This document shows positions 2,991-16,293 of a stretch of 32,000 nt of DNA, piece after piece. The stretch is taken from the NCBI GenBank assembly GCA_047651235.1, contig CP178758.1, forward strand, positions 870,001-902,000. Direction: 5' to 3'. Origin of the DNA: Candidatus Electrothrix yaqonensis (GTDB taxonomy: Bacteria; Desulfobacterota; Desulfobulbia; Desulfobulbales; Desulfobulbaceae). Every line of letters starts with the position of its first letter. Positions within the stretch are counted from its first letter, which is position 1. The notes beneath the pieces are model-generated. The model was not told the origin of the DNA and made no database searches. It saw only the letters and a list, made by a program, of their open reading frames with translations. The position numbers and the translations under genes are program-made.

Positions 2991-3187
2991 ATATGGTTAT
3001 ACTCAACATTGGAAGGACTTGAGCTTTCCGATCTCGACACCCACCGTTAAAACAGTGGGCTATTCTCTGTCGCCCCACCGGGGCTGCGCGAAAACAGCGT
3101 CCCGGAGGGACTGCCGAAAATAGCCCGGTCTTTCAAGGCCGGGACAGGAATTATTCCGATGGAAAGCATACCTGCTGGAGGAGTAAC

Positions 3188-3496
3188 ATGAGCAAAAAAA
3201 GAAAGGTTGCCGATCTGCCTGATTTTGATCCGGCAAAATTCCTGAAAGACGATGAAGATATTGCCGCTTACCTCACGGTCGTGATCGGAGAAAATGACCC
3301 CTCCCTCTTGGCTGCTGCTTTGGGGGATATTGCACGAGCCAAAGGAATGACGGAACTATCTCAATCCACAGGAATAACCCGCGAAGCTTTGTATAAAACA
3401 CTTAGGCCGAATGCCAAGCCGCGATTTGACACAATCAACCGAGTATGTGCAGCCCTTGGAGTTCGTTTGGTAGCCCAACCTGCTCATTCTCAGTGA
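3188..3496 (+). CDS. addiction-module antidote protein, HigA/XRE HTH family (orphan)
   Basis: 102 aa with a GGAGGA SD upstream. The pattern DFDPAKFLKDDEDIAAYL...MTELSQSTGITREALYKTLRPNAKPRFDTINRVCAALG is typical of HigA-type antidote proteins. No toxin ORF lies in the 197 bp upstream. Confidence 0.8.
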   Translation: MSKKRKVADLPDFDPAKFLKDDEDIAAYLTVVIGENDPSLLAAALGDIARAKGMTELSQSTGITREALYKTLRPNAKPRFDTINRVCAALGVRLVAQPAHSQ

Positions 3497-3498
3497 AT

Positions 3499-3605
3499 TA
3501 TAGCTGGAGCAACATAATTTGAATATGCCCACAAGAGGCATAAGTTTTGCCTTCACGCCTTTCAGATAGCTGATCCTGTATTCAGTTTATACTGCTCCAG
3601 CTATA
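3499..3605 (-). mobile_element. 107-bp MITE, copy A (inverted relative to copies B and C)
   Basis: Exact reverse complement of 4079-4185 and 18245-18351. It has a perfect 13-bp terminal inverted repeat TATAGCTGGAGCA that extends imperfectly to about 31 bp. It starts 2 nt after the higA-like stop and cuts the 3' end of the IS200 tnpA. Confidence 0.8.
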
Positions 3606-3946
3606 TCGACACAATAGCCGCGTGCCCAAAAACGATTACCCCAGTACGGTTTTTTCTTCAATTTGCGAAACTTGTTGAATACACGAATCGCGGTTCTGCC
3701 TTTAATGATGCCCATATAATCCGAAATCGACAGTTTCGGAGGAATCATCACGATAATATGAACATGATCTTTTTGAACATTCAGCTCAATCACTTCACAC
3801 TTTTTCTGCTCGCTGAATGCGCAGGTACAATTGAACACCTCCTGTCCGACTTCACCCTCAAGTATTCTTAATCGATACTTGGGAACCCAGACGATATGGT
3901 ACTGGCAATGCCAAATTGTATGTGATAGTTTTTTAAATCGACTCAT
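3587..3946 (-). CDS. tnpA: IS200/IS605 family Y1 transposase TnpA, 3'-truncated
   Basis: MSRFKKLSHTIWHCQYHIVWVPKYR..., HUH motif in DHVHIIV, and the RGY Tyr region. The ORF ends RGYCVD-IAGAV*, with its last ~28 nt inside the MITE at 3499-3605. About 30 residues that normally follow RGYxVxTVG are therefore missing. Confidence 0.8.
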   Translation of the reverse strand: MSRFKKLSHTIWHCQYHIVWVPKYRLRILEGEVGQEVFNCTCAFSEQKKCEVIELNVQKDHVHIIVMIPPKLSISDYMGIIKGRTAIRVFNKFRKLKKKPYWGNRFWARGYCVDIAGAV

Positions 3947-4035
3947 AATTTGCTCCTGATATTGTTGTGGGGACAACACGTCATGGAGCTTATTATGAGC
4001 TTTTGAGGTTCAACCGGCAAAGCCGCTGAACTCTG

Positions 4036-4056
4036 ACCACCCCCAGAGGGGGTGGT
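4036..4056. repeat. perfect 9-bp stem hairpin (ACCACCCCC-aga-GGGGGTGGT), probable IS200 left-end hairpin
   Basis: Read directly from the sequence. It lies ~90 nt upstream of tnpA on the tnpA strand, where IS200-type elements carry a subterminal hairpin. Confidence 0.5.
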
Positions 4057-4078
4057 TTTCTACTACGAAATAAAGTTG

Positions 4079-4185
4079 TATAGCTGGAGCAGTATAAACT
4101 GAATACAGGATCAGCTATCTGAAAGGCGTGAAGGCAAAACTTATGCCTCTTGTGGGCATATTCAAATTATGTTGCTCCAGCTATA
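4079..4185 (+). mobile_element. 107-bp MITE, copy B
   Basis: Identical to 18245-18351. It sits in the left arm of IS701-like copy 1, and about 50 bp of IS sequence present in copy 2 (about 8350-8403) are missing next to it. Confidence 0.8.
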
Positions 4186-4232
4186 TCAAAAAAATACCCG
4201 TCAATCGCCCTGATTATAACTTTATTCTTTTT

Positions 4233-5221
4233 ATGAACGCTCCCAGCCCCGAAAAAAGAAGTCCCCATGACAAATTCTTTGAGTTGACCGGCATCGCCCG
4301 GCAACTTACGTCTTTTCACGAAAGATATCATCATTTTTTTAAGAGACATACGGTAAGTTTGTCAGATAAAGCATTCCAATACTTGAAAGGTTTATTCCAG
4401 GCTGACAAAAAAACATGGAACGTATGGAGGAAAAGGTTCCGGGCGTTAAATATGAGCCCCTCCAGTATTTTCTTTCCGAATCGAACTGGGATTGGCGTCC
4501 TGTAAACAACCAAGTAGCTAAAGATGCGGATAACATTTTTGGAGGAAAGGAAGATAGCGCTCTTTTTATTGATGAATCCGGGATACCCAAAAAGGGTAAA
4601 ATGTCTGTTGGGGTTTCTCGTCAATGGTGCGGGCAGCTTGGTAAAACCGACAACTGTCAAGTAGTTCTACTTTGGCGATCATAAACATAACTAGCTTATT
4701 TTTATTAAGTATTTAAAAACCCCTGTTTTTAGTATTATTAATATTATTAAATAGTTAATGGTATGGTCACCAAAGTAGAATTAGTTGTCAGACGTGAGGT
4801 TAAGTCCCCGAAAAAAATTAAATATAGCCTAAGTAATGCGGAAAGTAACACGTCAACAAGACGACTTGCATATATGCAAGCTCAACGATATTGGGTTGAA
4901 CGGCCATTTCAGGATGCAAAAAATGAATGTGGAATGGGTGATTATCAGGCTCGGGGATGGCTGGCTTGGCATCATCATATGACTATGGTCATGATGGCCA
5001 TGTTGTTTATGGTCGAGCAACGATTATACCATCAAGTCGGTGTCCCGTTATTGAGTTGCGCTGATATAACAACATTACTCAAGTCAATTCTTCCACGTCG
5101 AGATGTAAACGAAGATGAAGTTATAAGACAGCTTCGTCAACGGCATGAAAAGAGGCAAGCTTCGATTGATTTCGCATATGAGAAACAACCGAATTGCAAA
5201 TTATTACCACAGCCTTTGTGA
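4233..5221 (+). pseudogene. IS701 family DDE transposase, disrupted (frameshift plus internal deletion)
   Basis: N-terminal MNAPSPEKRS...; then MERMEEKVPGVKYEPLQYFLSESNWDW...ALFIDESGIPKKG...SRQWCGQLGKTDNCQ in another frame. The C-terminal part RYWVERPFQDAKNECGMGDYQARGWLAWHHH resumes after the nested element. The segment carrying the middle catalytic Asp is missing. Confidence 0.7.
4665..4780. mobile_element. ~115-bp AT-rich MITE with IS701-like termini, nested in copy 1
   Basis: Termini TTCTACTTTGGCGATCAT ... ATGGTCACCAAAGTAGAA form an inverted repeat (2 mismatches in 18). They resemble the IS ends TTCTACTTTGTCAACCAT (8279) and CCAAAGTAGAA (9885, 5235). Confidence 0.55.
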
Positions 5222-5235
5222 GTGCCAAAGTAGAA

Positions 5236-5435
5236 TTAATCGTCTCGTCCATAGGCGAACCCGCCGTGTGATTTTTCAGCACTGCGAAAAATGCGTCATC
5301 AAGGCCGATGGCGGTCGAGAGGACGGATTTACGTCCCCCGCCCGGTTTGCGAATTCGTTCTTCTTTTTCAGACAGGCTGCCGTAAAAATTACGCATTCGC
5401 GTTTCTATCTCAGGAGAATATGTTTTTATCTTCAT
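5236..5435 (-). pseudogene. ISAzo13-type transposase, N-terminal fragment cut by IS701-like copy 1
   Basis: MKIKTYSPEIETRMRNFYGSLSEKEERIRKPGGGRKSVLS...LKNHTAGSPMDE matches the N-terminal GGGRK...GDPM region of ISAzo13-family transposases as I recall it. Homology stops at the IS right end (5235). Confidence 0.55.
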
Positions 5436-5760
5436 AACCGGATGAGAATAAACGCAACTATGAAATTGTCAATGACCTGTCAGCAAGTTCCGTTGTTATT
5501 AAATTTTCATTCCTTATGAAACCGTAAGGTTCTCCGACTGGGCCCTGATTTTTCAGAGTTCTTTTCAAGATAACCTCTTTTTGTCCTGCCTGAAAAGCAA
5601 ATACTCCCCGCATCAATGTGGAAGCAAAACCTGTTGCACTCTTTTTACAGCCCTGTTTAAATACATAACCACGAAATTCTGCTTGAACATACAGGTCTTA
5701 CCCTGTCCGATTTTCCATTCAGATCATGCCCTGAGAACAAACAGGGAAAAGGAAGCTGTC

Positions 5761-7914
5761 GTGATACATGACGCCACCCTCGGTATAGCCGTTCTGCTGG
5801 CTGCCGGACTTTTTGTTGCCAAACTGGCCCAGCTCCTCCGTCTCCCGTCGGTGACCGGCTTTATTCTTGCCGGACTGCTGCTGGGCGAGTCAGGCATCGG
5901 GCTGATCACTGTTGACCTGATAGGCCATCAGCTGGATCATTTCACCAGTATCGCCCTGATGCTGATCGCCTTCGGCATCGGTGAACATGTGGAGCTGCGC
6001 CGCCTTGACGGCATGGGCCGCGATGTTGCCTATATATCGGTGATTCAGGCTGCAGCCGCTTTTCTCCTAGTCCTGCTTGCCGCCCTGCCGACCACTTGGC
6101 TGGTCTCCGGCACCGAGGAAATCACGCGGGATCAGGTGGTTCTCTCCGTGCTTCTCGGCGCGATCGCCGTGGCCACTGCACCGGCAGCCATTCTCCATGT
6201 CACACGGGAGCTGGGCACACGCGGTCCCATGACCTCCACCCTTATGGCCGTGGTTGCGGTGGATGACGCCATTGCCATCATGATCTTCGGGATAGCTGTT
6301 TCCACGGCCCATAACCTCACCGGCACGGACGGACTTTCCCTGCAGTCGCTCCTGTTCTGTCTTTACGAAATCGGCGGTTCTCTGATCGCCGGTGTCATCA
6401 CAGGATGTCTTATCGGTTTCATTCTGGACAAGCTGCGCAACCGGGGTGAAATGCTGACAGCCGGACTGGCCCTGCTCCTGCTCTGCGGCGAGCTGACCCG
6501 GCTGCTCCATCTCTCCCCCCTGCTGGCAGGCATGATGACCGGTTTTGTGATGATCAACCATGCGGAACGGGACGTCCGGCTGTTCCGGATCATCAACGGC
6601 TTTGAGCCGCCGATCTATGTCATGTTTTTCACCCTGGCCGGTGTGCATCTGGATCTCTCCGCCCTGCGGCTGGCCGGGTGGGTTGGGATAGCCTATTTTC
6701 TGGCCAGAATTCTGGGAAAATACAGCGGCAGCTGGCTTGGTGCCTATCTGTCCGGCGCAGAAAAAAATGTACGTAACTTCCTCGGCCTCTCGCTGATCCC
6801 CCAGGCCGGGGTGGCTATCGGCTTTGTCTTTATGGTCAGTACAGACCCGAAGCTGGCTGCCTGGTCGGATACCATCACCCCGGTGGTCCTGGCCGGAGTG
6901 GTCCTGTCCGAGCTGTTCGGTCCGCTGCTGGTCCGTATTACGGTCGAAAAAGCCGGAGAAATCGGCCCGGATCAGGCCCGCAGTACGTCCAGTTCCGCAA
7001 TCTCCCGGTTTTTCGGATTCAGCACAGGCAAGGACGACAACCCCACTCTGCCCCCGTGGCAGGAAAATACGCTGCATCCGTCAGGTTCCCCTGCAGGGAC
7101 AGTGCTCGTCGGTACCTGCCATTTTGCCACTGCCAGAGCACTGACTAGGGTGGCGACTATTCTGGCGCATCATTTTGACTCCCTTCCCCTAGCTGTCCGG
7201 GTGCACTGCAGGACAGAAAATGCAGAAAACGGAAAAAACGGGCAGCTGACTGCGGAAGAACAGCAGGATCTCTTTCTGCCGGAAACCGATGAGGCGGCAT
7301 TGTTAGGTTATCCCCTGCAGACTAAGGTTATATACCACGAACGGGCCTCGGCCCTGATTGCCGCAACAGAAGAGGAAAATATCCGAGCCCTGGTCCTCGG
7401 TTATCCCCTCGGCAGAACTCCGCTGAAATTCCGGAAAATACTTGACCCGGTGGTGGCCAATGTCCGCTGTCCGGTGATTGCTGTCCGTTTTGTCGGCACA
7501 ATGACCTGGGAACGTATCCTGATTCCGTTTATCCTGCCGGAAGAGCTGGATGAGCTGCTGCCGGTTATTGAGGCGCTGGTGACCTCATGTCAGCCGAAAC
7601 TGACCTTTCACCACCTCCTTTACGCGGACAGCACCAAGGATGAACGACGGAGCAGGGAAAAAGAACTGGAGCAATGGGCGCGGTCCACGTTTTTTGACGC
7701 CCGTGAAATCACCTGTATTGCCGAAATAACCGAATCCCGGCGGGAATCAATCCTGACCGAAGCCCGGCGCCATGATCTGATCATTCTGAAAGGCATGCGG
7801 ACCGCCGGGCTGCAGCGCAGAATTTTCGGTTCGTTGACTGATGTGGTGGTGAAAAACTGCAGAAATCCGGTTTTTGTAGTATATCCTGCTGAGAGAGCGC
7901 ATAATCATTTGTGA
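5761..7914 (+). CDS. CPA2-family cation:proton antiporter fused to tandem universal-stress-protein-like domains
   Basis: Likely GTG start at 5761 (GGAAAAGGAAG upstream). Multi-TM Kef/NapA-like N-terminal ~400 aa (LRLPSVTGFILAGLLLGESGIGL...). The C-terminal ~270 aa has two USP-like units (VLVGTCHFATARAL...; ERILIPFILPEE...LIILKGMRTAGLQRRIFGSLTDVVVKNCRNPVFVV). Confidence 0.8.
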   Translation: MIHDATLGIAVLLAAGLFVAKLAQLLRLPSVTGFILAGLLLGESGIGLITVDLIGHQLDHFTSIALMLIAFGIGEHVELRRLDGMGRDVAYISVIQAAAAFLLVLLAALPTTWLVSGTEEITRDQVVLSVLLGAIAVATAPAAILHVTRELGTRGPMTSTLMAVVAVDDAIAIMIFGIAVSTAHNLTGTDGLSLQSLLFCLYEIGGSLIAGVITGCLIGFILDKLRNRGEMLTAGLALLLLCGELTRLLHLSPLLAGMMTGFVMINHAERDVRLFRIINGFEPPIYVMFFTLAGVHLDLSALRLAGWVGIAYFLARILGKYSGSWLGAYLSGAEKNVRNFLGLSLIPQAGVAIGFVFMVSTDPKLAAWSDTITPVVLAGVVLSELFGPLLVRITVEKAGEIGPDQARSTSSSAISRFFGFSTGKDDNPTLPPWQENTLHPSGSPAGTVLVGTCHFATARALTRVATILAHHFDSLPLAVRVHCRTENAENGKNGQLTAEEQQDLFLPETDEAALLGYPLQTKVIYHERASALIAATEEENIRALVLGYPLGRTPLKFRKILDPVVANVRCPVIAVRFVGTMTWERILIPFILPEELDELLPVIEALVTSCQPKLTFHHLLYADSTKDERRSREKELEQWARSTFFDAREITCIAEITESRRESILTEARRHDLIILKGMRTAGLQRRIFGSLTDVVVKNCRNPVFVVYPAERAHNHL

Positions 7915-8278: not shown

Positions 8279-9885
8279 TTCTACTTTGTCAACCATAACC
8301 TTTTGATCTATTTGTAAAAACTTCTTACAATATCCGGATAAAGTTGTATCTTTCATTAGGAAAATTTTATCGCTTTTTGATCAAGCTAGCACCTGATAAC
8401 AGCTATCAAAAAAATACCCGTCAATCGCCCTGATTATAACTTTATTCTTTTTATGAACGCTCCCAGCCCCGAAAAAAGAAGTCCCCATGACAAATTCTTT
8501 GAGTTGACCGGCATCGCCCGGCAACTTACGTCTTTTCACGAAAGATATCATCATTTTTTTAAGAGACATACGGTAAGTTTGTCAGATAAAGCATTCCAAT
8601 ACTTGAAAGGTTTATTCCAGTCTGACAAAAAAACATGGAACGTATGGAGGAAAAGGTTCCGGGCGTTAAATATGAGCCCCTCCAGTATTTTCTTTCCGAA
8701 TCGAACTGGGATTGGCGTCCTGTAAACAACCACGTAGCTAAAGATGCGGATAACATTTTTGGAGGAAAGGAAGATAGCGCTCTTTTTATTGATGAATCCG
8801 GGATACCCAAAAAGGGTAAAATGTCTGTTGGGGTTTCTCGTCAATGGTGCGGGCAGCTTGGTAAAACCGACAACTGTCAAGTAGTAGTGTTTGCAACTTT
8901 GGGATATGGTCGCTTTTCAACGCCGATCGACTGTCGGCTGTATTTACCGAAAAGCTGGACGGATGACAAGGAACGTTGTCTTAAGGCTAAGATTCCCGCC
9001 GACAAAATTGTTTTCAAAACAAAGCATGAACAGGCTCTTGACATGGTCTTCCATGCGCGAAAGAATGGCGTTCGTTTTAACTGGGTGGGTTGTGATGGTT
9101 TTTACGGGAAGAATTCTCAATTTCTTCGGAAACTTGATAATAACGATGAAAAGTTCATGGCAGATGTTCATAAAGACCAAATAATTTATAATTTATATTG
9201 AAGATCCCAACCCTGTCGTTCCAAAAGCAAAATCGAACAAAGGGAAACGCCCGAGCAAGCTCGAAGCACAAAAAGAAGGCATACGTGTTGATAAATGGGT
9301 GATGCAACAACTTAATAATGCATGGAAACGGGTGAAAGTTCGAAATACGACCAAAGGCAAACTCATTGTGGATATTCTGCATAGGGAAGTGGCTATGGGA
9401 CGGTAAAGAGGCTGAAGCAAGAAAATGGCATTTAGTTGTCAGACATGAGGTTAAGTCCCCGAAAAAAATTAAATATAGCCTAAGTAATGCGGAAAGTAAC
9501 ACGTCAACAAGACGACTTGCATATATGCAAGCTCAACGATATTGGGTTGAACGGCCATTTCAGGATGCAAAAAATGAATGTGGAATGGGTGATTATCAGG
9601 CTCGGGGATGGCTGGCTTGGCATCATCATATGACTATGGTCATGATGGCCATGTTGTTTATGGTCGAGCAACGATTATACCATCAAGTCGGTGTCCCGTT
9701 ATTGAGTTGCGCTGATATAACAACATTACTCAAGTCAATTTTCCACGTCGAGATGTAAACGAAGATGAAGTTATAAGACAGCTTTGTCAACGGCATGAAA
9801 AGAGGCAAGCTTCGATTGATTTCGCATATGAGAAACAACGGAATTGCAAATTATTACCACAGCCTTTGTGAGTGCCAAAGTAGAA
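8279..9885 (+). mobile_element. IS701-like element, copy 2 (full length ~1.6 kb, transposase frameshifted)
   Basis: IRL TTCTACTTTGTCAACCAT at 8279 and IRR ...GCCAAAGTAGAA ending at 9885. It carries an IS701-type DDE transposase reading frame. Confidence 0.8.
8453..9871 (+). pseudogene. IS701 family DDE transposase, multiple frameshifts
   Basis: The reading frame must switch at the A7 run near 8626-8632, near 9190, near 9400, and at a 1-nt deletion near 9740 relative to copy 1. DDE candidates are FIDESG, WVGCDGFYG and YWVERPF. Confidence 0.75.
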
Positions 9886-9965: not shown

Positions 9966-10075
9966 ATCCCGTAGTTATTAGACCTCCTGCAAAACTTGGT
10001 GATTTGACAGAAACGGCGGATGCTGATATTTTTTCGGTCACTTTTTCGATTATCAACCCCGGAGGTCTGAAAATC

Positions 10076-10303
10076 ATGCTCACATTCGAAAAACTCTCCC
10101 GCCGCCCTGAAACATTCCGCCGTCTGACCGGTGTCGATATTGATCTTTTCAACGGAATGACGGAAAAGATCCGCCCTTTATGGGAAGAGCGGAGAGATAA
10201 TTTTGAAAAGGGCGGGAGAAAGCACAACTTGGAAGGAGCTGAAAACCACCTTCTCGCCATGCTCCTGCGAAGTCTTCGCTTATCTATTACCGTTGTTACG
10301 TGA
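10076..10303 (+). CDS. IS5-family transposase, N-terminal HTH part (orfA)
   Basis: GGAGG SD, then MLTFEKLSRRPETFRRLTGVDIDLFNGMTEKIRPLWEE...HLLAMLL (HTH_Tnp_4-like). The frame ends where LIYYRCYVTYEFLSFFF continues in another frame. Confidence 0.65.
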   Translation: MLTFEKLSRRPETFRRLTGVDIDLFNGMTEKIRPLWEERRDNFEKGGRKHNLEGAENHLLAMLLRSLRLSITVVT

Positions 10304-10944
10304 CATATGAGTTCCTCAGTTTTTTCTTCGATTCCGATGAGACGACGGTGATGCGCGCAGTGAAACGGATGGAAAAAATCGCGGTACGGGTGATTCATAT
10401 TGAAAAAAAGCGTGAAATCACACGGGAAGATGCGGAATACCTGATAATCGATGCGACGGAGCAGCCGGTTCAGCGCCTGAAGAAAGGACAGAAGAAGTAT
10501 TACAGCGGAAAGAAGGGAAAACACACGCTCGGAACGCAGTTTACCGCCGGTCCCGACGGACGGATTTTTTCGGTTTCGGCGTCGTATCCCGGAAGTGTTC
10601 ATGATTTCAGGATATATAAGGAACAGAAGGGGCGGGAGCGTTTTCACGGTATTCCGAAGAAGGCCGACAGCGGATATCAGGGAATCGCGGCATATGACCG
10701 GCGCGCCGAAATTCCCTTTAAAAAGCCCCGGAACGGTGAACTGACCGCCGAACAGAAGGCATATAATCTTGATTTATCGAAAAAACGTATCAAAGTTGAG
10801 CATGTCATAAGAGAGGTGAAGGTATTTAAAATCATGTCGGAAACATACCGGAACAGGCTTAAAGGCCATAATATAAAGAAAAATATCATATCCGGCATAG
10901 TGAATATGAAGGTTGCGGCACGGAAAATGAAGAAAGCTGCCTGA
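10300..10944 (+). CDS. IS5-family DDE_Tnp_4 transposase catalytic part (orfB)
   Basis: YLIIDATEQPVQR, KKADSGYQG and KKRIKVEHVIREVKVFKI give a D, D, E triad in the Harbinger/DDE_Tnp_4 pattern. The true coding frame opens near 10270 and needs a frameshift from orfA, either programmed or a mutation. Confidence 0.75.
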   Translation: MTYEFLSFFFDSDETTVMRAVKRMEKIAVRVIHIEKKREITREDAEYLIIDATEQPVQRLKKGQKKYYSGKKGKHTLGTQFTAGPDGRIFSVSASYPGSVHDFRIYKEQKGRERFHGIPKKADSGYQGIAAYDRRAEIPFKKPRNGELTAEQKAYNLDLSKKRIKVEHVIREVKVFKIMSETYRNRLKGHNIKKNIISGIVNMKVAARKMKKAA

Positions 10945-11032
10945 AGCGGAAAATTTTGAAAAAGGGAAAAACCTCACCGCCTGAGAAGAACAGGCAGTTC
11001 TGCAGGAGGTCTAAAGCAACATAGGAATTACA

Positions 11033-11074
11033 GGCGGCACTGTCCCTCACGGGATGGTGTCGCTTTTTTTATTT
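11033..11074 (+). terminator. Rho-independent terminator
   Basis: GGCGGCACTGTCCC-tcac-GGGATGGTGTCGC forms a 13-bp stem including 3 G-U pairs, followed by TTTTTTTATTT. It lies just right of the IS5 end and upstream of the EACC1/STAND operon. Confidence 0.55.
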
Positions 11075-11375: not shown

Positions 11376-11753
11376 ATGAATGCCCATATAAAGTTTAAGG
11401 AAAATTCCCCCTCTGGAGAAAGTTCCTACCGTTTAAATAGTCTTGCAGAGTTTATAGAGCAAGAGGCTGACATCCCCGTGCAACTTGAAAAAGGTGAGCC
11501 CCAAAAGGGGAGTAAAACAGACTTGACTATCGCGCTAAGTATTGCTGGACTAGCCCTGTCTGCGGTTGCAACTCTTGTCTCAGTTCTCTCGTATTGGAAA
11601 TCACAACAACCGAACTACTCGGTTTCAATAAAGTGCGGCAATACGACAATCCAGCTCAATAATGTTTCTTCAGATGAGCTTCAAGCTGTAATCAAAAAAC
11701 TGGAAGAACAAAACCATTCCTCTGACCTAACCGTTCTTCTTGCGGAAGAATAA
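11376..11753 (+). CDS. EACC1-like (effector-associated constant component) single-TM protein
   Basis: 125 aa. N-terminal SSYRLNSLAEFIEQEADIPVQLEKGEPQKG, central TM LTIALSIAGLALSAVATLVSVLSYW, then YSVSIKCGNTTIQLNNVSSDELQAVIKKLEE. This order matches the EACC1 pattern as I recall it. The stop is 3 nt before the next ATG. Confidence 0.6.
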   Translation: MNAHIKFKENSPSGESSYRLNSLAEFIEQEADIPVQLEKGEPQKGSKTDLTIALSIAGLALSAVATLVSVLSYWKSQQPNYSVSIKCGNTTIQLNNVSSDELQAVIKKLEEQNHSSDLTVLLAEE

Positions 11754-11756
11754 CAC

Positions 11757-14700
11757 ATGTCTTCCGCAGAAAATAATCCGAGACGCATAGCTGTTGTTGT
11801 AAACTCTCTGACCGGAGACGAACTGAAAGCTGGCAATAGAGATGTGTCACGCATCTACAGCCTTCTTACAAACCATGAACTCGGGGCATGTTCAATTGAT
11901 AGCCCTAAGCCACTCCATGAATGTAAGAGTTGCAATGAATTAAGGGGGAGTGTTGCACCGGTAATTGAAAACTGGCATTTGACTGACCAGTTTATATTTT
12001 ATTTCTCAGGACATGGAACAGTCCTAAATGGAAGGTATTGTTTGCAATTAGGTGCTTCTTCTGAAATTCTTCCTTTTGACTGCTTAATGATTGACCTAGA
12101 AGTTAAAGGAGTACAACGGGCTATTATCATTCTTGATGCTTGTCATAGTGGTGCCGCAATACAGGGAAGCAAGAATTCTGATATCCTTGCCTCAATCAAT
12201 AAGGGGACTATTCCAAAAGGAATTGCTATCATAGCCTCATCCAGGGCCAGTCAAACAAGTCATGAAATGCCGGATGGCTCGGCGAGTGTTTTTACAGACC
12301 TTTTATGCAACGGTATTGAAACAGGCTTAGATCTGCAATGTACTGCTAACGGGCTGATCTCTGTCGATGACATTGTCTCTTATATCAGCAATAAGCTGAA
12401 AGCAGATAAAAAGTATTCATCATTTCTGCAACAGCCTGTATTCAAGATTGATAAAGCGGAGCGACCTATTTGGCTTGCAAAGAACAAAAGCGGAAAAACC
12501 TCAAAAAATAAAACAACACGCATTCAACAGAACATCAGAACACCAGAGGAACTGAAATTACTCTACGAGAAGACGGTCTATACAGAACATCCCTGCTTGG
12601 GAGCTTCATTGGATGATTTAGATTGGTCATTAGTAGAGAGTTATGCAACGGAACTTGGTGAAGATAAAGGCGACATGCAAGATAGAGAGATTGTGCTCAC
12701 AAAGCTCAAATTTTTCTCTCCCCTTGAAAATAATCCTACATTACATCAGTCAGCTGTACTGTGCTTTGCTATGTATCCAGAGAGGATGTATTCTCAGGCT
12801 AAATCAAATTTTGTCCTTGGAGATCAAGGAGAGGAATCCTTTGAACGACATGAAGTGAAAGGGCCGCTGAGTATTCAGATAGAGGAATTAATAAGAAAGA
12901 CCAAGCAGTCTCTCCGCAAAACGTCATCAATAGCGGATAGCGGAAAACGAGTAGAACAGTACGAGATTGATCAGAATCTAATACGAGAGCTTATCTCTAA
13001 TGCAGTTACTCATAGAGATTACCGATCCAACGGTGTCGTTAAAGTAACCGTTAATTCAGATTATATAGAAATTCAGAGTCCTGGTTCCTTTCCAGGCCAC
13101 TTGTCATGGGCAGAACTTCTCAAGTGTTCAGCTTATCCCGTTTCCAAACCTGTAAACGGAGCAATCTCTCAGTATTTGGCTCAGTTATTGGTATTTGAGG
13201 GAATAGGGCGTGGTTTTCGTATAATTCACAATTACATAACCGAGCATGGCAAGGAGAGCATTAAGTTTAAAGAACTACCTGGCCCGACAACTTCGGTGCG
13301 AATATTACGCCCTCGTGATCGAAATTTTGCTCATGGAGTGGTTACTGCGGCAGGTGAACAAAATATTGTTCAAGGAGCAGGTTCGCTAGGCAGGCAGGTC
13401 AATATTGCTCAAGATGTGAAAGGAGATGGCAATATATTCTCTGGCAGAGCAGAAAATATAACCTATCATCATTATCCCCGTCCTTCTGTTCCCCAACTCT
13501 TTCCGCCGCAAGACGACATCTTTCTTCATCGCGAGGAGGAACTCACTTGGCTGTATGAGCACCTGCATCCTGATAGGGTGGTTGCCATCTGTGGGCCGGG
13601 AGGGATGGGAAAGAGTGCCTTAGCCGCCCATGCGGTGCGTAAGTTACCCGCTGACCGCTTCTCGGACGGTATAGTCTTTCATTCCTTTTATCATCAGCCG
13701 GATACCACAATGGCCCTCCAGACTATTGCTCAAGCTTTTGGTATTGCAGCGGAGGCAGACCTAGAGCAGCTTGTGCGTAATGCCTTGATTGGTAAGCAAG
13801 CTTTGCTCATCCTTGACGGTACAGAAGAGGCTGAGGATCTTCGGGCCGTGTTAGATCTGCGAGGTGGCTGTGGCGTGCTCATCACCACTAGGAAAAAGAG
13901 TGACTCTGGATCACTTCGCCTAGAGTTGTCGCCCCTGTCTGATGACCAAGCTGAAGACATGTTGCGTGCTTGGGGCGAAATCAGTGACAACCAGCAAACC
14001 ATAGAACAGCTCTGTAGTTTGTTGGGTGGTTGGCCCATAGCACTGCGCCTAGCCGGGAACTATTTACGTAGCACCGGCGAGTCTGCAACGGACTACCTAC
14101 GCTGGTTACAGGAGGAGCCGTTCAAAGAGCTGGGGGATAGTGAGGAGCATCAGCGTGACAATGCAACCCTACTGCTCAAGCAGAGCACGGCCCAGGTGGG
14201 GGAGGATGCCCGCCTTGTGCTGGAACTGGCAGGCACCTCGGCTTATGATCTGCTGTCCGTTGCGCCCATGACCGTTCTGCTGGAGGACGATGAACTCCGC
14301 ACCCGCAAGGCCGTGAACGAGCTGGTCAATTACGGCCTGCTGGAACGCCGGGGAGAACGCCTGCATATAGGCCATGCCCTGATCCATGAGTACGCAGCCC
14401 GGAACCTGCCCCTGAGCAGGAAGGCACTGGCGCGGGTGGCCAGCTATTATATAGCTTGGTGCAGGGAACAGAGTGCTGCCGGCGTACCGGGTTATGCCCT
14501 GCTGGATGATGAGCGAACACATTGCCTGCGCCTGATACGTGCCTGTTTGGACAGTGGGCTGTGGCAGGAGGTGAAAGGGTTGGTTGAAGCAATCTCGCAG
14601 TACCTTGACCGGCAGGGTTGGTGGACAGAGCGACTGACCGCCTTGGAGATGCTCCTGACTGCGACCCGCAAGGCTGGCGAACGCATGGATGAAGGAGAAT

Positions 14701-15350
14701 GTCTGAATAACTTGGGCTACACCTGTTGGCGACGCGGGGAGTTTGAGCAGGCTCTTGCATGGCACGAACAAAGCCTGCCCATAATCCGTGAGCTGAGAGA
14801 CCGACAAGGAGAAGGCGTACTTCTGAATGACATTGGCAATATTTATAGAGAACAAGGCAAGTATGAGCAGGCCCTGCAATATTATCAGCAGAGTTTGAGC
14901 ATCCGGCAGGAAGTCGATGACCGGGAGGGGGCAGGGGTCGCACTAAACAATATTGGTCAGCTTTATTATTACCAAGGCAACTACGAGCAAGCCTTGCAGT
15001 ATTATGAGCAATGTTTACCCGTCATGCGAGAAGCAGGCGATAAAATCGGGGAAGGGACAACCCTGAACAACATTGCCACTATCCGCCGTACCCGAGGTGA
15101 GCCGAGCAAGGCTCTGGAGTATCATCAACAAGCCTTGACTATCAGCCGTGAGCTTGGTGACCGGGCCGAAGAAGCACAAAGCTGCTTAAATATCGGTCTT
15201 ACCTATCATGACTTGGACGATCTAGTTCAGGCCGAAGAGCACATTGCCTTGGCTGTGGAGATCGCAGAGGCCATCGGATATCCTGCTTTAGAGGAATGGC
15301 GGGAGGAGTTGGGGAAGGTTCGAGAAAAGCGACAAGACAAAATGATATAA
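11757..15350 (+). CDS. caspase (C14) / AlbA_2-HATPase_c_4-like / NB-ARC STAND NTPase / TPR fusion protein
   Basis: Caspase dyad FYFSGHG (His86, 12012-12014) and ILDACHSG (Cys129, 12141-12143). Middle module with LISNAVTHRDY, IEIQSPG and FEGIGRGFRI. Walker A GPGGMGKS (13593-13616), Walker B LLILDG (Asp687, 13815-13817), LITTRKK, GGWPIALRLAG. Five 40-aa TPR units at the C-terminus. Confidence 0.9.
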   Translation: MSSAENNPRRIAVVVNSLTGDELKAGNRDVSRIYSLLTNHELGACSIDSPKPLHECKSCNELRGSVAPVIENWHLTDQFIFYFSGHGTVLNGRYCLQLGASSEILPFDCLMIDLEVKGVQRAIIILDACHSGAAIQGSKNSDILASINKGTIPKGIAIIASSRASQTSHEMPDGSASVFTDLLCNGIETGLDLQCTANGLISVDDIVSYISNKLKADKKYSSFLQQPVFKIDKAERPIWLAKNKSGKTSKNKTTRIQQNIRTPEELKLLYEKTVYTEHPCLGASLDDLDWSLVESYATELGEDKGDMQDREIVLTKLKFFSPLENNPTLHQSAVLCFAMYPERMYSQAKSNFVLGDQGEESFERHEVKGPLSIQIEELIRKTKQSLRKTSSIADSGKRVEQYEIDQNLIRELISNAVTHRDYRSNGVVKVTVNSDYIEIQSPGSFPGHLSWAELLKCSAYPVSKPVNGAISQYLAQLLVFEGIGRGFRIIHNYITEHGKESIKFKELPGPTTSVRILRPRDRNFAHGVVTAAGEQNIVQGAGSLGRQVNIAQDVKGDGNIFSGRAENITYHHYPRPSVPQLFPPQDDIFLHREEELTWLYEHLHPDRVVAICGPGGMGKSALAAHAVRKLPADRFSDGIVFHSFYHQPDTTMALQTIAQAFGIAAEADLEQLVRNALIGKQALLILDGTEEAEDLRAVLDLRGGCGVLITTRKKSDSGSLRLELSPLSDDQAEDMLRAWGEISDNQQTIEQLCSLLGGWPIALRLAGNYLRSTGESATDYLRWLQEEPFKELGDSEEHQRDNATLLLKQSTAQVGEDARLVLELAGTSAYDLLSVAPMTVLLEDDELRTRKAVNELVNYGLLERRGERLHIGHALIHEYAARNLPLSRKALARVASYYIAWCREQSAAGVPGYALLDDERTHCLRLIRACLDSGLWQEVKGLVEAISQYLDRQGWWTERLTALEMLLTATRKAGERMDEGECLNNLGYTCWRRGEFEQALAWHEQSLPIIRELRDRQGEGVLLNDIGNIYREQGKYEQALQYYQQSLSIRQEVDDREGAGVALNNIGQLYYYQGNYEQALQYYEQCLPVMREAGDKIGEGTTLNNIATIRRTRGEPSKALEYHQQALTISRELGDRAEEAQSCLNIGLTYHDLDDLVQAEEHIALAVEIAEAIGYPALEEWREELGKVREKRQDKMI
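14697..15296 (+). repeat. tandem coding repeat: five ~120-nt TPR units
   Basis: Units begin ECLNNLGYTCW, VLLNDIGNIY, VALNNIGQLYY, TTLNNIATIR and QSCLNIGLTYH, each with a xYEQALQYYxQ-type core and a RExxDRxGEG linker. Confidence 0.7.
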
Positions 15351-15447: not shown

Positions 15448-16293
15448 TCATCGCCTTGTTTCGTCTCTGATCGCCTCAATTTCATCCTTTGATAAACCTG
15501 TCAGGGTTGAGATTAACTGGATATCAAGCCCTTGCTTCAGCCCGTTGCGTACAATTTCTCTCCCCCTTGCAGCCTTTCCCTCTTCATAATAGGTGTCCAT
15601 GGAGCTTTTCAGATCCCAGTAATCTTTTAAACTCTCCTGATAATCCTGTTGTTCCAAGGGATCAAACTTGGCCAGCTCAGCAATCTCAATCAGTCGTTTA
15701 AAAATGCCTGCGGCGAGTTCTTTGGGATGATCTTGGAGGCGATGAAGATTTTTAAAGGCATAGAGCCAGCGGTCATAATCTGAGCGCAGCTCCTCAAGGG
15801 CCTTTTTGAATTTAGGAATCTCCAGATAGATAAAGGTCAATTTATCGTAAAAGACCTGCCTGGTCTCCTGTTCCATCAATTTTACCCGATGATGAAGCTT
15901 GTCCTGATCAGCATCATCAAAACAGAAATCCAGGATGCCGATGGTGTAGACGCTCTTCAGCTCGTATTTCCAGTCTTTACCCTTTGCGGCCTGTTCCTGC
16001 ACGGCAAAGGTGGAATAGTAGAGACTGCGATCTTTGAAGAATTTCTGTTTGACCCGTTGTATCTCAACGATAAATTTCTCGCCCTGTTCATTGGTGCAGT
16101 AGAGGTCAAAGACGGCGTTTCGGTCCCTTGTTGTTTTGCCCAGGCGTTCACCGTTGAGGTAGGTGAGGTGCTTTATCTGTTCTTTATCATCCAGGAGTTC
16201 GTTTAAGAAAGCAATCAGCAGGTCCTTGTTGGGTTCTTCGCCGAAGACCTTTTTGAAGCCGTAATCTGTGAACAGATTGATATAGCGATCCAT
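15448..16293 (-). CDS. Rpn family recombination-promoting nuclease / PD-(D/E)XK putative transposase
   Basis: MDRYINLFTDYGFKKVFGEEPNKDLLIAFLNELL...AVFDLYCTNEQGEKFIVEIQRVKQ...IGILDF is the classic TIGR01784/Rpn-type N-terminus and D...E-x-Q/K nuclease core. Confidence 0.85.
   Translation of the reverse strand: MDRYINLFTDYGFKKVFGEEPNKDLLIAFLNELLDDKEQIKHLTYLNGERLGKTTRDRNAVFDLYCTNEQGEKFIVEIQRVKQKFFKDRSLYYSTFAVQEQAAKGKDWKYELKSVYTIGILDFCFDDADQDKLHHRVKLMEQETRQVFYDKLTFIYLEIPKFKKALEELRSDYDRWLYAFKNLHRLQDHPKELAAGIFKRLIEIAELAKFDPLEQQDYQESLKDYWDLKSSMDTYYEEGKAARGREIVRNGLKQGLDIQLISTLTGLSKDEIEAIRDETRR

Follow-up and report, generated by a model that had tools for sequence, protein, structure and literature searches.

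We analysed a 32,000-nt window of the genome of Candidatus Electrothrix yaqonensis (contig CP178758.1, positions 870,001 to 902,000), whose host is a multicellular cable bacterium, Candidatus Electrothrix sp. YB6, and examined a 1197-residue open reading frame (ORF) that is the second gene of an EACC1-caspase two-gene system. Between its N-terminal caspase-like protease and its C-terminal STAND NTPase, this protein carries a module at residues ~254-526 that is almost certainly the body of the COG2865/DIP2311 family, comprising an N-terminal subdomain (N-subdomain) and a GHKL-type HATPase_c_4 domain; the family is represented in the Protein Data Bank (PDB) by 3LMM, which is DIP2311 of Corynebacterium diphtheriae. 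We tentatively propose that the module acts as an effector-proximal input or regulatory domain and as a putative ligand-binding switch, perhaps for a nucleotide, although our confidence in this functional assignment stays short of even. The explanation taken whole, joining the identity of the module, the system that contains it and its function, is the one that we favor with moderate confidence. The deposited annotation names the 1197-residue protein (XOF34482.1) only as a 'tetratricopeptide repeat protein' and the upstream 125-residue ORF as hypothetical. The parts of the operon, in window coordinates, are as follows.

11376 to 11753, plus strand: EACC1-like gene (XOF34481.1, 125 residues), a predicted pore-forming toxin precursor, from a weak Pfam match and iterative search.
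11757 to 15350, plus strand: caspase-module-STAND ORF, 1197 residues.
11757 to 12506, plus strand: caspase-like protease head, residues 1-250, from Peptidase_C14 and its His and Cys motifs.
12531 to 12872, plus strand: N-subdomain of the module, residues ~259-372, from an AlphaFold2 model, with no Pfam family.
12873 to 13316, plus strand: GHKL/Bergerat-type HATPase_c_4 domain, residues ~373-520, PF13749.
13317 to 13511, plus strand: linker rich in G, N, I and Q, residues 521-585, from sequence and composition.
13512 to 14636, plus strand: STAND NTPase of the NB-ARC type, from Pfam and its Walker A and B motifs.
14637 to 15350, plus strand: tetratricopeptide repeat (TPR) array, with which the STAND part presumably senses and recognizes its target, from TPR_12 (2.6e-39) and related families.

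A previous sequence-only reading of this DNA had placed a domain module between the protease and the STAND NTPase, and a Pfam scan of the ORF supports that order. Peptidase_C14 matches residues 9-229 (6.6e-11, above its gathering score), with the caspase dyad represented by the His in FYFSGHG (81-87) and the Cys in LDACHSG (126-132), and the NCBIfam model caspase_w_EACC1 matches the same head at 2.6e-22 and 79.3 bits against a cutoff of 140. NB-ARC follows at residues 597-798 (4e-11, 43.1 bits against a gathering score of 23.5) with Walker A at GPGGMGKS (613-620) and Walker B at LLILDG (~683-688), and the TPRs lie at residues ~967-1175. The peptides quoted in the earlier reading were all located in the ORF, namely TLHQSAVLCFAMYPERMY at residues 328-345, GPLSIQIEEL at 369-378, RELISNAVTHRDY at 410-422, IEIQSPGSFP at 437-446 and LLVFEGIGRGFRIIHNY at 477-493. 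The extent proposed there, 12540 to 13560, does contain the module but overshoots its end by ~226 nt, running through the linker into the start of NB-ARC (residue 602).

The same reading held that this region is not a linker, and we reach the same conclusion because the module profile finds matches far beyond chance, because the models are folded and because, when 46 full-length caspase-bearing relatives are aligned, 15 of 16 invariant columns belong to the module. The envelope of the hidden Markov model covers residues 254-526 (window positions 12516-13334, ~270 residues). A word-indexed homologue search returned only four relatives, so that an exhaustive profile search was needed, in which a five-sequence module profile was compared with 1.84 billion cluster representatives; it retrieved 14,920 proteins at E ≤ 1e-3, of which 385 reached E ≤ 1e-30. 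AlphaFold2 predicted a fold for the whole module from a shallow alignment, with a predicted local distance difference test score (pLDDT) of 72 and a predicted template modeling score (pTM) of 0.75, and for its first 114 residues, from 45 sequences, with a pLDDT of 91.5. A viral counterpart of the module was not found in BFVD, which yielded just weak histidine-kinase matches.

The second half of the module was identified by sequence profile and by predicted structure. PF13749 (HATPase_c_4), whose gathering score is 26, reaches 30.9 bits at residues 428-506 of the full protein and 33.7 bits when the segment is excised and scanned on its own; it is also matched in 34 of the 46 caspase-bearing and 60 of 67 non-caspase relatives. 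When PDB sequences were searched with the single segment, the match to 3LMM was marginal (E = 0.32), and the five-sequence profile was needed; with it we observed 3LMM at 4.4e-11, and two histidine kinases, DevS and DosT, matched through their ATP-binding domains at 3e-4 to 5e-4. Foldseek with the module model likewise returned 3LMM (E = 1e-10 over 261 columns), with histidine-kinase CA, PDK and BCK domains next at E values of 4e-4 to 1e-2, among them the CA domain of CckA (135 columns, root-mean-square deviation 4.0).

In canonical GHKL domains the Asn of the N-box coordinates Mg and is preceded four residues earlier by a Glu, while the Asp of the G1 box (DxGxG) contacts adenine. The N-box-like RELISNAVTHRDY (R-E411-L-I-S-N415-A-V-T-H-R-D-Y) aligns to the N-box of DevS and DosT, with E411 and N415 invariant in the 46 caspase-bearing relatives, as are G484 and G486 in the G2-like loop FEGIGRGF. 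In all, E411, N415, H419, R420, P442, G443, G484 and G486 are invariant in these relatives, and the same eight positions are invariant or at least 90% conserved in the 67 non-caspase relatives. The module shares with GHKL domains (histidine-kinase CA, SpoIIAB, PDK/BCK) its Bergerat-fold similarity in profile and Foldseek searches, the N-box Glu and Asn and the G2 glycine loop, but it differs from them in having Ser or Asn for the G1 Asp, in lacking a DHp or other phospho-acceptor domain, and in possessing a family-specific HRDY extension of the N-box together with a novel N-subdomain. This N-subdomain (residues ~259-372) consists of four helices and a beta-hairpin, with the motifs HPC, DDLDW, LHxSAVLCF and GPLS, and no Pfam family covers it. 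Compared with COG2865/DIP2311 proteins, the 'pSlfn-HisKinase(-HTH)' architecture, the N-subdomain and HATPase_c_4 body is homologous, stands directly behind an effector-type head and keeps the motifs E-x3-N-A-x2-H-R-D-Y, N/S-P-G and E-x2-G-x-G; the differences are a caspase in place of the AlbA_2/Schlafen nuclease head, and a linker, NB-ARC and TPRs in place of a winged helix-turn-helix (wHTH), DIP2311-like_C or Fic-like_C tail.

These results bear on the further claim of the sequence-only reading that the region has the layout of AlbA_2 plus HATPase_c_4. Its second half is HATPase_c_4 and the family is classically AlbA_2 plus HATPase_c_4, but the first half is not AlbA_2, an assignment that was ruled out by Pfam, hhalign, the catalytic motif and Foldseek. 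PF04326 (AlbA_2) has no match at E ≤ 1 in the 1197-residue protein and does not rank with the 25 families seen most often in the 46 caspase-bearing relatives, and hhalign of the N-subdomain profile (45 sequences) with six true AlbA_2 heads gave a probability of 0.3%. The Schlafen catalytic motif, Ex4(E/D)xK (PMC13056530), occurs nowhere in the whole 1197-residue ORF and is present at residue ~5-11 in all six true AlbA_2 heads. Schlafen structures were absent from both Foldseek searches, with the whole module and with the N-subdomain model; as a positive control, human SLFN12 was recovered at 4e-5 with the AlbA_2 head of P0097, a classical relative whose head, body and tail are all colinear with 3LMM. 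Profile and structure searches of the region thus recovered HATPase_c_4 and 3LMM, but no AlbA_2 or Schlafen match.

The position of AlbA_2 in classical proteins points the same way. AlbA_2 is found in 6 of the 67 non-caspase relatives, in every case at residues ~5-125, and in classical relatives the module profile begins past it at ~125-146 and extends through HATPase_c_4 to ~375-390, after which the wHTH follows. Because classical AlbA_2 precedes the body and the window module matches the body, the caspase stands where classical proteins have that head. Both presumed nucleic-acid-binding or nuclease parts of the family, AlbA_2 head and wHTH tail, are missing here, and an annotation error is corrected in that a HATPase_c_4 match does not imply a Schlafen or nucleic-acid-binding domain.

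Two of the functions that could be read from the family name can be judged on this evidence. A second effector, either a Schlafen-like tRNase or an active ATPase or kinase that damages the cell, would agree with that name and with the cleavage of tRNA by eukaryotic and bacterial Schlafen domains, but the protein contains no AlbA_2 domain, no Ex4(E/D)xK motif, no Schlafen fold match and no kinase substrate domain such as DHp, and the system already has a dedicated toxin in EACC1. We consider a second effector extremely improbable. Schlafen-like nuclease activity in particular is essentially refuted, as there is no nuclease domain; of the functions floated by the sequence-only reading, tRNA cleavage by a second effector is hence discarded, while a second sensor or regulator is favored by the evidence. 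Alternatively, the module could bind phage DNA or RNA and report to the caspase, which is what the sequence-only reading chiefly had in view once its AlbA_2 assignment is set aside. Annotations treat the family as a DNA-binding or transcriptional regulator, it figures as the 'Schlafen DNA-binding domain' in the literature on prokaryotic Argonautes (pAgo; PMC6299218), a wHTH ends its classical members, and the module is found in Argonaute-associated proteins; however, the two folds of the family recognized as nucleic-acid-binding are precisely the absent head and tail, neither subdomain of the module matches a nucleic-acid-binding fold in the PDB, and the Pfam name 'RecG C-terminal' is a mere label. 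A nucleic-acid-binding sensor is, in our estimate, quite unlikely.

The module is a separable unit whose AlbA_2 head can be replaced by a caspase, a TIR domain or a DUF4062 NADase. Ahead of it, the 67 non-caspase relatives carry DUF4062 (23/67), AlbA_2 (6/67) or TIR_2 (3/67), and otherwise an unannotated region or nothing. A direct analogue of the window protein is P0053 (906 residues), with TIR_2 at 5-119, the module at 144-402 and nSTAND1 at 478-850; such TIR-module-STAND proteins and DUF4062-module-wHTH proteins (P0004) share the order of effector head, module and downstream domain, but their heads are of the NADase type where the window head is a protease, and no EACC1 partner is implied for them. 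Heads fused to the module have been shown or treated as effectors, and their fused domains as sensors, in published work (for Schlafen, PMC13056530). Perez Taboada et al. 2026 (PMC13056530) identified bacterial Schlafen domains as tRNases that phage activates, and the module corresponds to the 'HisKinase' of that study, where it is the presumed sensor and the most frequent fusion partner of bacterial Schlafen domains (34.0% alone and 19.2% with HTH, ~53%). DUF4062 is a TIR-like NADase effector, and the auxiliary regions act as sensors, again according to published work.

Further arrangements were observed among the relatives. One protein of 734 residues (P0026) is a caspase-module-REC-LuxR HTH fusion, two of ~800 residues (P0043 and P0045) join an unknown 200-residue head to the module and DO-GTPase2, and a protein of 2918 residues (P0008) carries the module at 1135-1402. 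Among PADLOC models, PDLC02402, PDLC02418 and PDLC02394, which comprise Argonaute-associated 'SIR2-PNTD1-PNTD2' and 'SIR2-Kinase-PNTD1-PNTD2' models and a pAgo model, all contain the module; in the pAgo model it occurs together with AlbA_2 at the N-terminus. Ryazansky et al. 2018 (PMC6299218) described fusions of this kind, with SIR2 or pAgo joined to a 'Schlafen' DNA-binding domain.

We then considered how the module is distributed among caspases. The order of caspase (residues ~1-250) and then module (~255-520) was found in 84 of the 152 top representatives, in proteins of 485-1752 residues, and in 28 genomic genes. The sequence-only reading had called the layout unusual; it was indeed not found described in the literature searched, but it recurs and is no isolated insertion. 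What follows the module in caspase-bearing relatives is varied: NB-ARC in 19/46, NACHT in 13/46, and further TPR, nSTAND3, WD40, NA-iREase1, REC with a LuxR-type HTH, unannotated sequence or nothing. By sequence, caspase-linked modules are a subgroup of their own, matching the window module in phmmer at 1e-40 to 1e-80 as opposed to 1e-12 to 1e-20 for classical ones. A genome scan gave 80 loci, mostly from filamentous or colonial cyanobacteria, Caldilineaceae, Planctomycetota, Polyangiaceae and Saprospiraceae. An EACC1-like ORF lies 0-74 bp upstream of 24 of the 28 genomic caspase-module genes, the window gene included, and the module is present in 24 of 52 caspase genes with an EACC1-like ORF at most 800 bp upstream on the same strand.

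The sequence identities of caspase and module co-vary across 4,957 pairs (Spearman 0.71), while the C-terminal regions are homologous in just 8-33% of pairs, and gain or loss of the module on a neighbor-joining tree of the caspases takes ~11 changes compared with 22.5 for shuffled labels. A description of caspase plus module as a fixed 'constant unit' was nonetheless softened to 'semi-constant', given these ~11 changes and a clean breakpoint in Microcystis that is described below. A minimal case of the architecture is a Crocosphaera protein of 555 residues (L017) that consists of caspase and module only, with EACC1 upstream and no ORF downstream on the same strand.

The base composition of the window operon groups the module with the caspase. 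G+C content at third codon positions (GC3) is 0.39 in EACC1, 0.35 in the caspase, 0.37 in the N-subdomain, 0.37 in the GHKL-like half of the module and 0.26 in the linker, and rises to 0.61 in NB-ARC and 0.54 in the TPRs; the switch is sharp and falls inside the single ORF at nt ~13420-13540, the 3' end of the linker. The linker itself, 65 residues at 521-585 with the quasi-repeats GEQNIVQGAG...GRQVNIAQDVKGDGNIFSGRAENI, has the lowest GC3 in the gene, and host housekeeping genes have a G+C content of ~0.56 overall. With values of 0.35-0.39 as against 0.54-0.61, the module belongs by composition to the EACC1-caspase side and not to the STAND side, which suggests a recent chimera in which an AT-rich EACC1-caspase-module cassette was joined to a STAND-TPR part of host-like composition.

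We read the module as a regulatory input for four reasons: nowhere is the protein more conserved than at the residues equivalent to the GHKL pocket, the module goes with five effector heads that are unrelated to one another, it can stand as the sole domain besides the protease (L017), and it travels with the effector side, EACC1 and caspase. As such it may gate or license the effector head in front of it, as an effector-proximal switch that would bind a ligand, probably a nucleotide, and by analogy with other GHKL domains this gating may run through ligand-dependent self-association. In the window protein it would add a second checkpoint in series with the STAND/TPR sensor, and in minimal caspase-module proteins it would be the sole input domain. 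A broader version of this idea, in which the COG2865 body is a universal portable effector-gating switch, perhaps sensing nucleotide or the energy state of the cell, and one module licenses at least five unrelated heads (Schlafen tRNase, DUF4062/NIR NADase, TIR, SIR2 and caspase), is speculative and unlikely.

Assignment of an input function is weakened by the lost G1 Asp, by dispensability of the module in close relatives and by the unmatched fold of the N-subdomain, and several further observations count against it or against parts of the underlying identification. In the G1-like IEIQSPG, Ser441 occupies the position of the canonical Asp, most relatives have Asn there (NPG), and DevS has TDNGRG; ATP binding is uncertain because the G1-box Asp is Ser here and Asn in most relatives. 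The model of the full module is of moderate confidence only (pLDDT 72). For the N-subdomain, a profile search of PDB sequences gave no match below E = 0.3, Foldseek of its model (pLDDT 91.5) against the PDB gave none below E = 2, and searched alone it does not recover 3LMM. The module matches PADLOC models named Aga_SIR2-PNTD1-PNTD2 and one pAgo family, and the link to SIR2 comes from the model names alone. The two Schlafen-'HisKinase' constructs tested by Perez Taboada et al. had no defence phenotype (PMC13056530). Another 24 EACC1-linked caspases lack the module, and in close relatives without it the caspase is fused straight to nSTAND1, NACHT, nSTAND5 or an ARC6-like domain.

The question of dispensability is posed most sharply by two Microcystis genes, one without the module and one with it.

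5983 to 7785: L033, Microcystis caspase without the module, 601 residues.
3320 to 7189: L010, Microcystis caspase with the module, 1290 residues.

Their products are 97% identical at residues 1-264, which cover caspase and hinge, and unrelated from there on, with the breakpoint exactly at the start of the module. The pair amounts to a natural domain swap and marks the module as dispensable in close relatives. This observation, together with the loss of the G1 Asp and the tolerance of any C-terminal partner or none, would fit a passive scaffold or spacer, a pseudo-enzyme that sets geometry or self-association between the caspase and the following part and receives no ligand. The residues equivalent to the GHKL pocket are, however, the most conserved of the whole protein in caspase-linked and classical members alike, which is not expected of a spacer, and we regard a scaffold as unlikely, if still worth keeping in mind, and retain regulatory input as the preferred function.

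Several features tie the operon to the EACC1-caspase system of Kaur et al. 2020 ('System 4') and Evans et al. 2025 (EACC1-KrAvs12), namely an EACC1 gene with a transmembrane helix directly upstream, an N-terminal caspase, a variable C-terminus that includes STAND NTPases and repeats, and a multicellular bacterial host; unlike the published descriptions of that system, it has a conserved extra module between the caspase and the variable region. The stop codon of the EACC1-like gene lies 3 nt 5' of the caspase start. The Pfam EACC1 model matches the 125-residue ORF at E = 0.0037, under its gathering score, and a local jackhmmer search started from this ORF returned 60 ORFs, mostly directly upstream of caspase genes and including Streptomyces loci. 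The protein has a predicted transmembrane helix at L50-W74 with Asp49 directly before it; many EACC1 homologues have [KR]-D-[GS]-G at the equivalent place, and in some (L004 and L005) the Asp is missing. The experimentally mapped cleavage site of the Ktedonobacter EACC1 is likewise Asp49 (PMC12642450). Among the PADLOC matches of the 1197-residue protein there was no Avs model, in a PADLOC-DB version from 2023 that possibly does not contain Avs12.

In the characterized system, a phage protein triggers a caspase-Avs12 fusion, which cuts EACC1 at Asp49 and leaves a C-terminal fragment that forms pores in the membrane (PMC12642450). By analogy with this homologous system, the NB-ARC/TPR part of the window protein would detect a trigger and oligomerize, the caspase would then be activated and cut the EACC1 encoded upstream, which also has Asp49 directly before its transmembrane helix, and the C-terminal EACC1 fragment may form membrane pores.

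A protease next to the module raises the alternative that the module is a substrate or autoinhibitory pro-domain, which keeps the caspase masked or is itself removed so that the C-terminal part is set free. It directly adjoins the caspase, Kaur et al. 2020 propose that auto-proteolysis frees the variable domains behind the caspase of EACC1 systems, and Asp residues follow the module at D520, D554, D558, D584 and D585. Against this, the translation has no Asp in the hinge between caspase and module (~236-264), EACC1 is the only demonstrated substrate in this type of system, and the same module stands behind non-protease heads, so that its conserved role cannot be specific to proteolysis. We consider this explanation improbable and keep to the module as a proposed effector-proximal input domain.

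The defence operon has mobile-element genes on both sides, given an insertion sequence (IS) and a DDE_5 gene upstream and a PDDEXK_2 gene downstream.

9978 to 11014, strand not stated: IS element directly upstream of the operon, with a DDE_Tnp_4 transposase and 19-nt terminal inverted repeats.
15448 to 16293, minus strand: PD-(D/E)XK family transposase gene directly downstream of the operon (PDDEXK_2, 7.6e-74).

The terminal inverted repeats of the IS element are 95% complementary and its transposase gene lies at 10300-10944; a separate DDE_5 transposase ORF at 8635-9201 is apparently truncated (profile positions 31-215 of 272). No tRNA genes were found in the window, and no direct repeats marking an integration site flank the operon. 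A simple sigma-70 scan showed no convincing promoter upstream of EACC1; a strong terminator-like hairpin of 15 pairs, with a T-run after it, lies at 11032-11065, just past the IS end and ~310 nt upstream of the EACC1 start. Elsewhere, just downstream of a NAD-dependent DNA ligase gene, the Rfam model of the Acido-Lenti-1 sRNA matched positions 3040-3085 at 37.6 bits, barely over its gathering score of 37; this borderline match is unexpected in Desulfobulbaceae and may be due to chance.

The domain family, the EACC1-caspase system and STAND sensors are already known. In the literature searched, we found no description of the Schlafen-'HisKinase' body as a separable unit, of its pairing with EACC1 caspases or of the head-module-STAND layout, and no functional study of the HATPase_c_4/COG2865/DIP2311 module; neither Kaur et al. 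2020 nor Evans et al. 2025 mentions a Schlafen, AlbA, HATPase or GHKL domain behind the caspase. The region after the caspase in EACC1-caspase proteins is consequently not simply 'variable', as a large subgroup starts with a semi-constant module, and multicellular bacteria carry the caspase version of this module within their EACC1 pore-toxin systems. One regulatory domain with several read-outs, tRNA cleavage, NAD+ loss and EACC1 cleavage, offers a concrete handle on its function, for which natural pairs with and without the module, L010 and L033 among them, provide ready-made comparison constructs. If the COG2865 body were the universal switch that we hold to be unlikely, caspase-module-STAND proteins would use a two-key (AND-gate) activation, like the multi-checkpoint control of eukaryotic inflammasomes.

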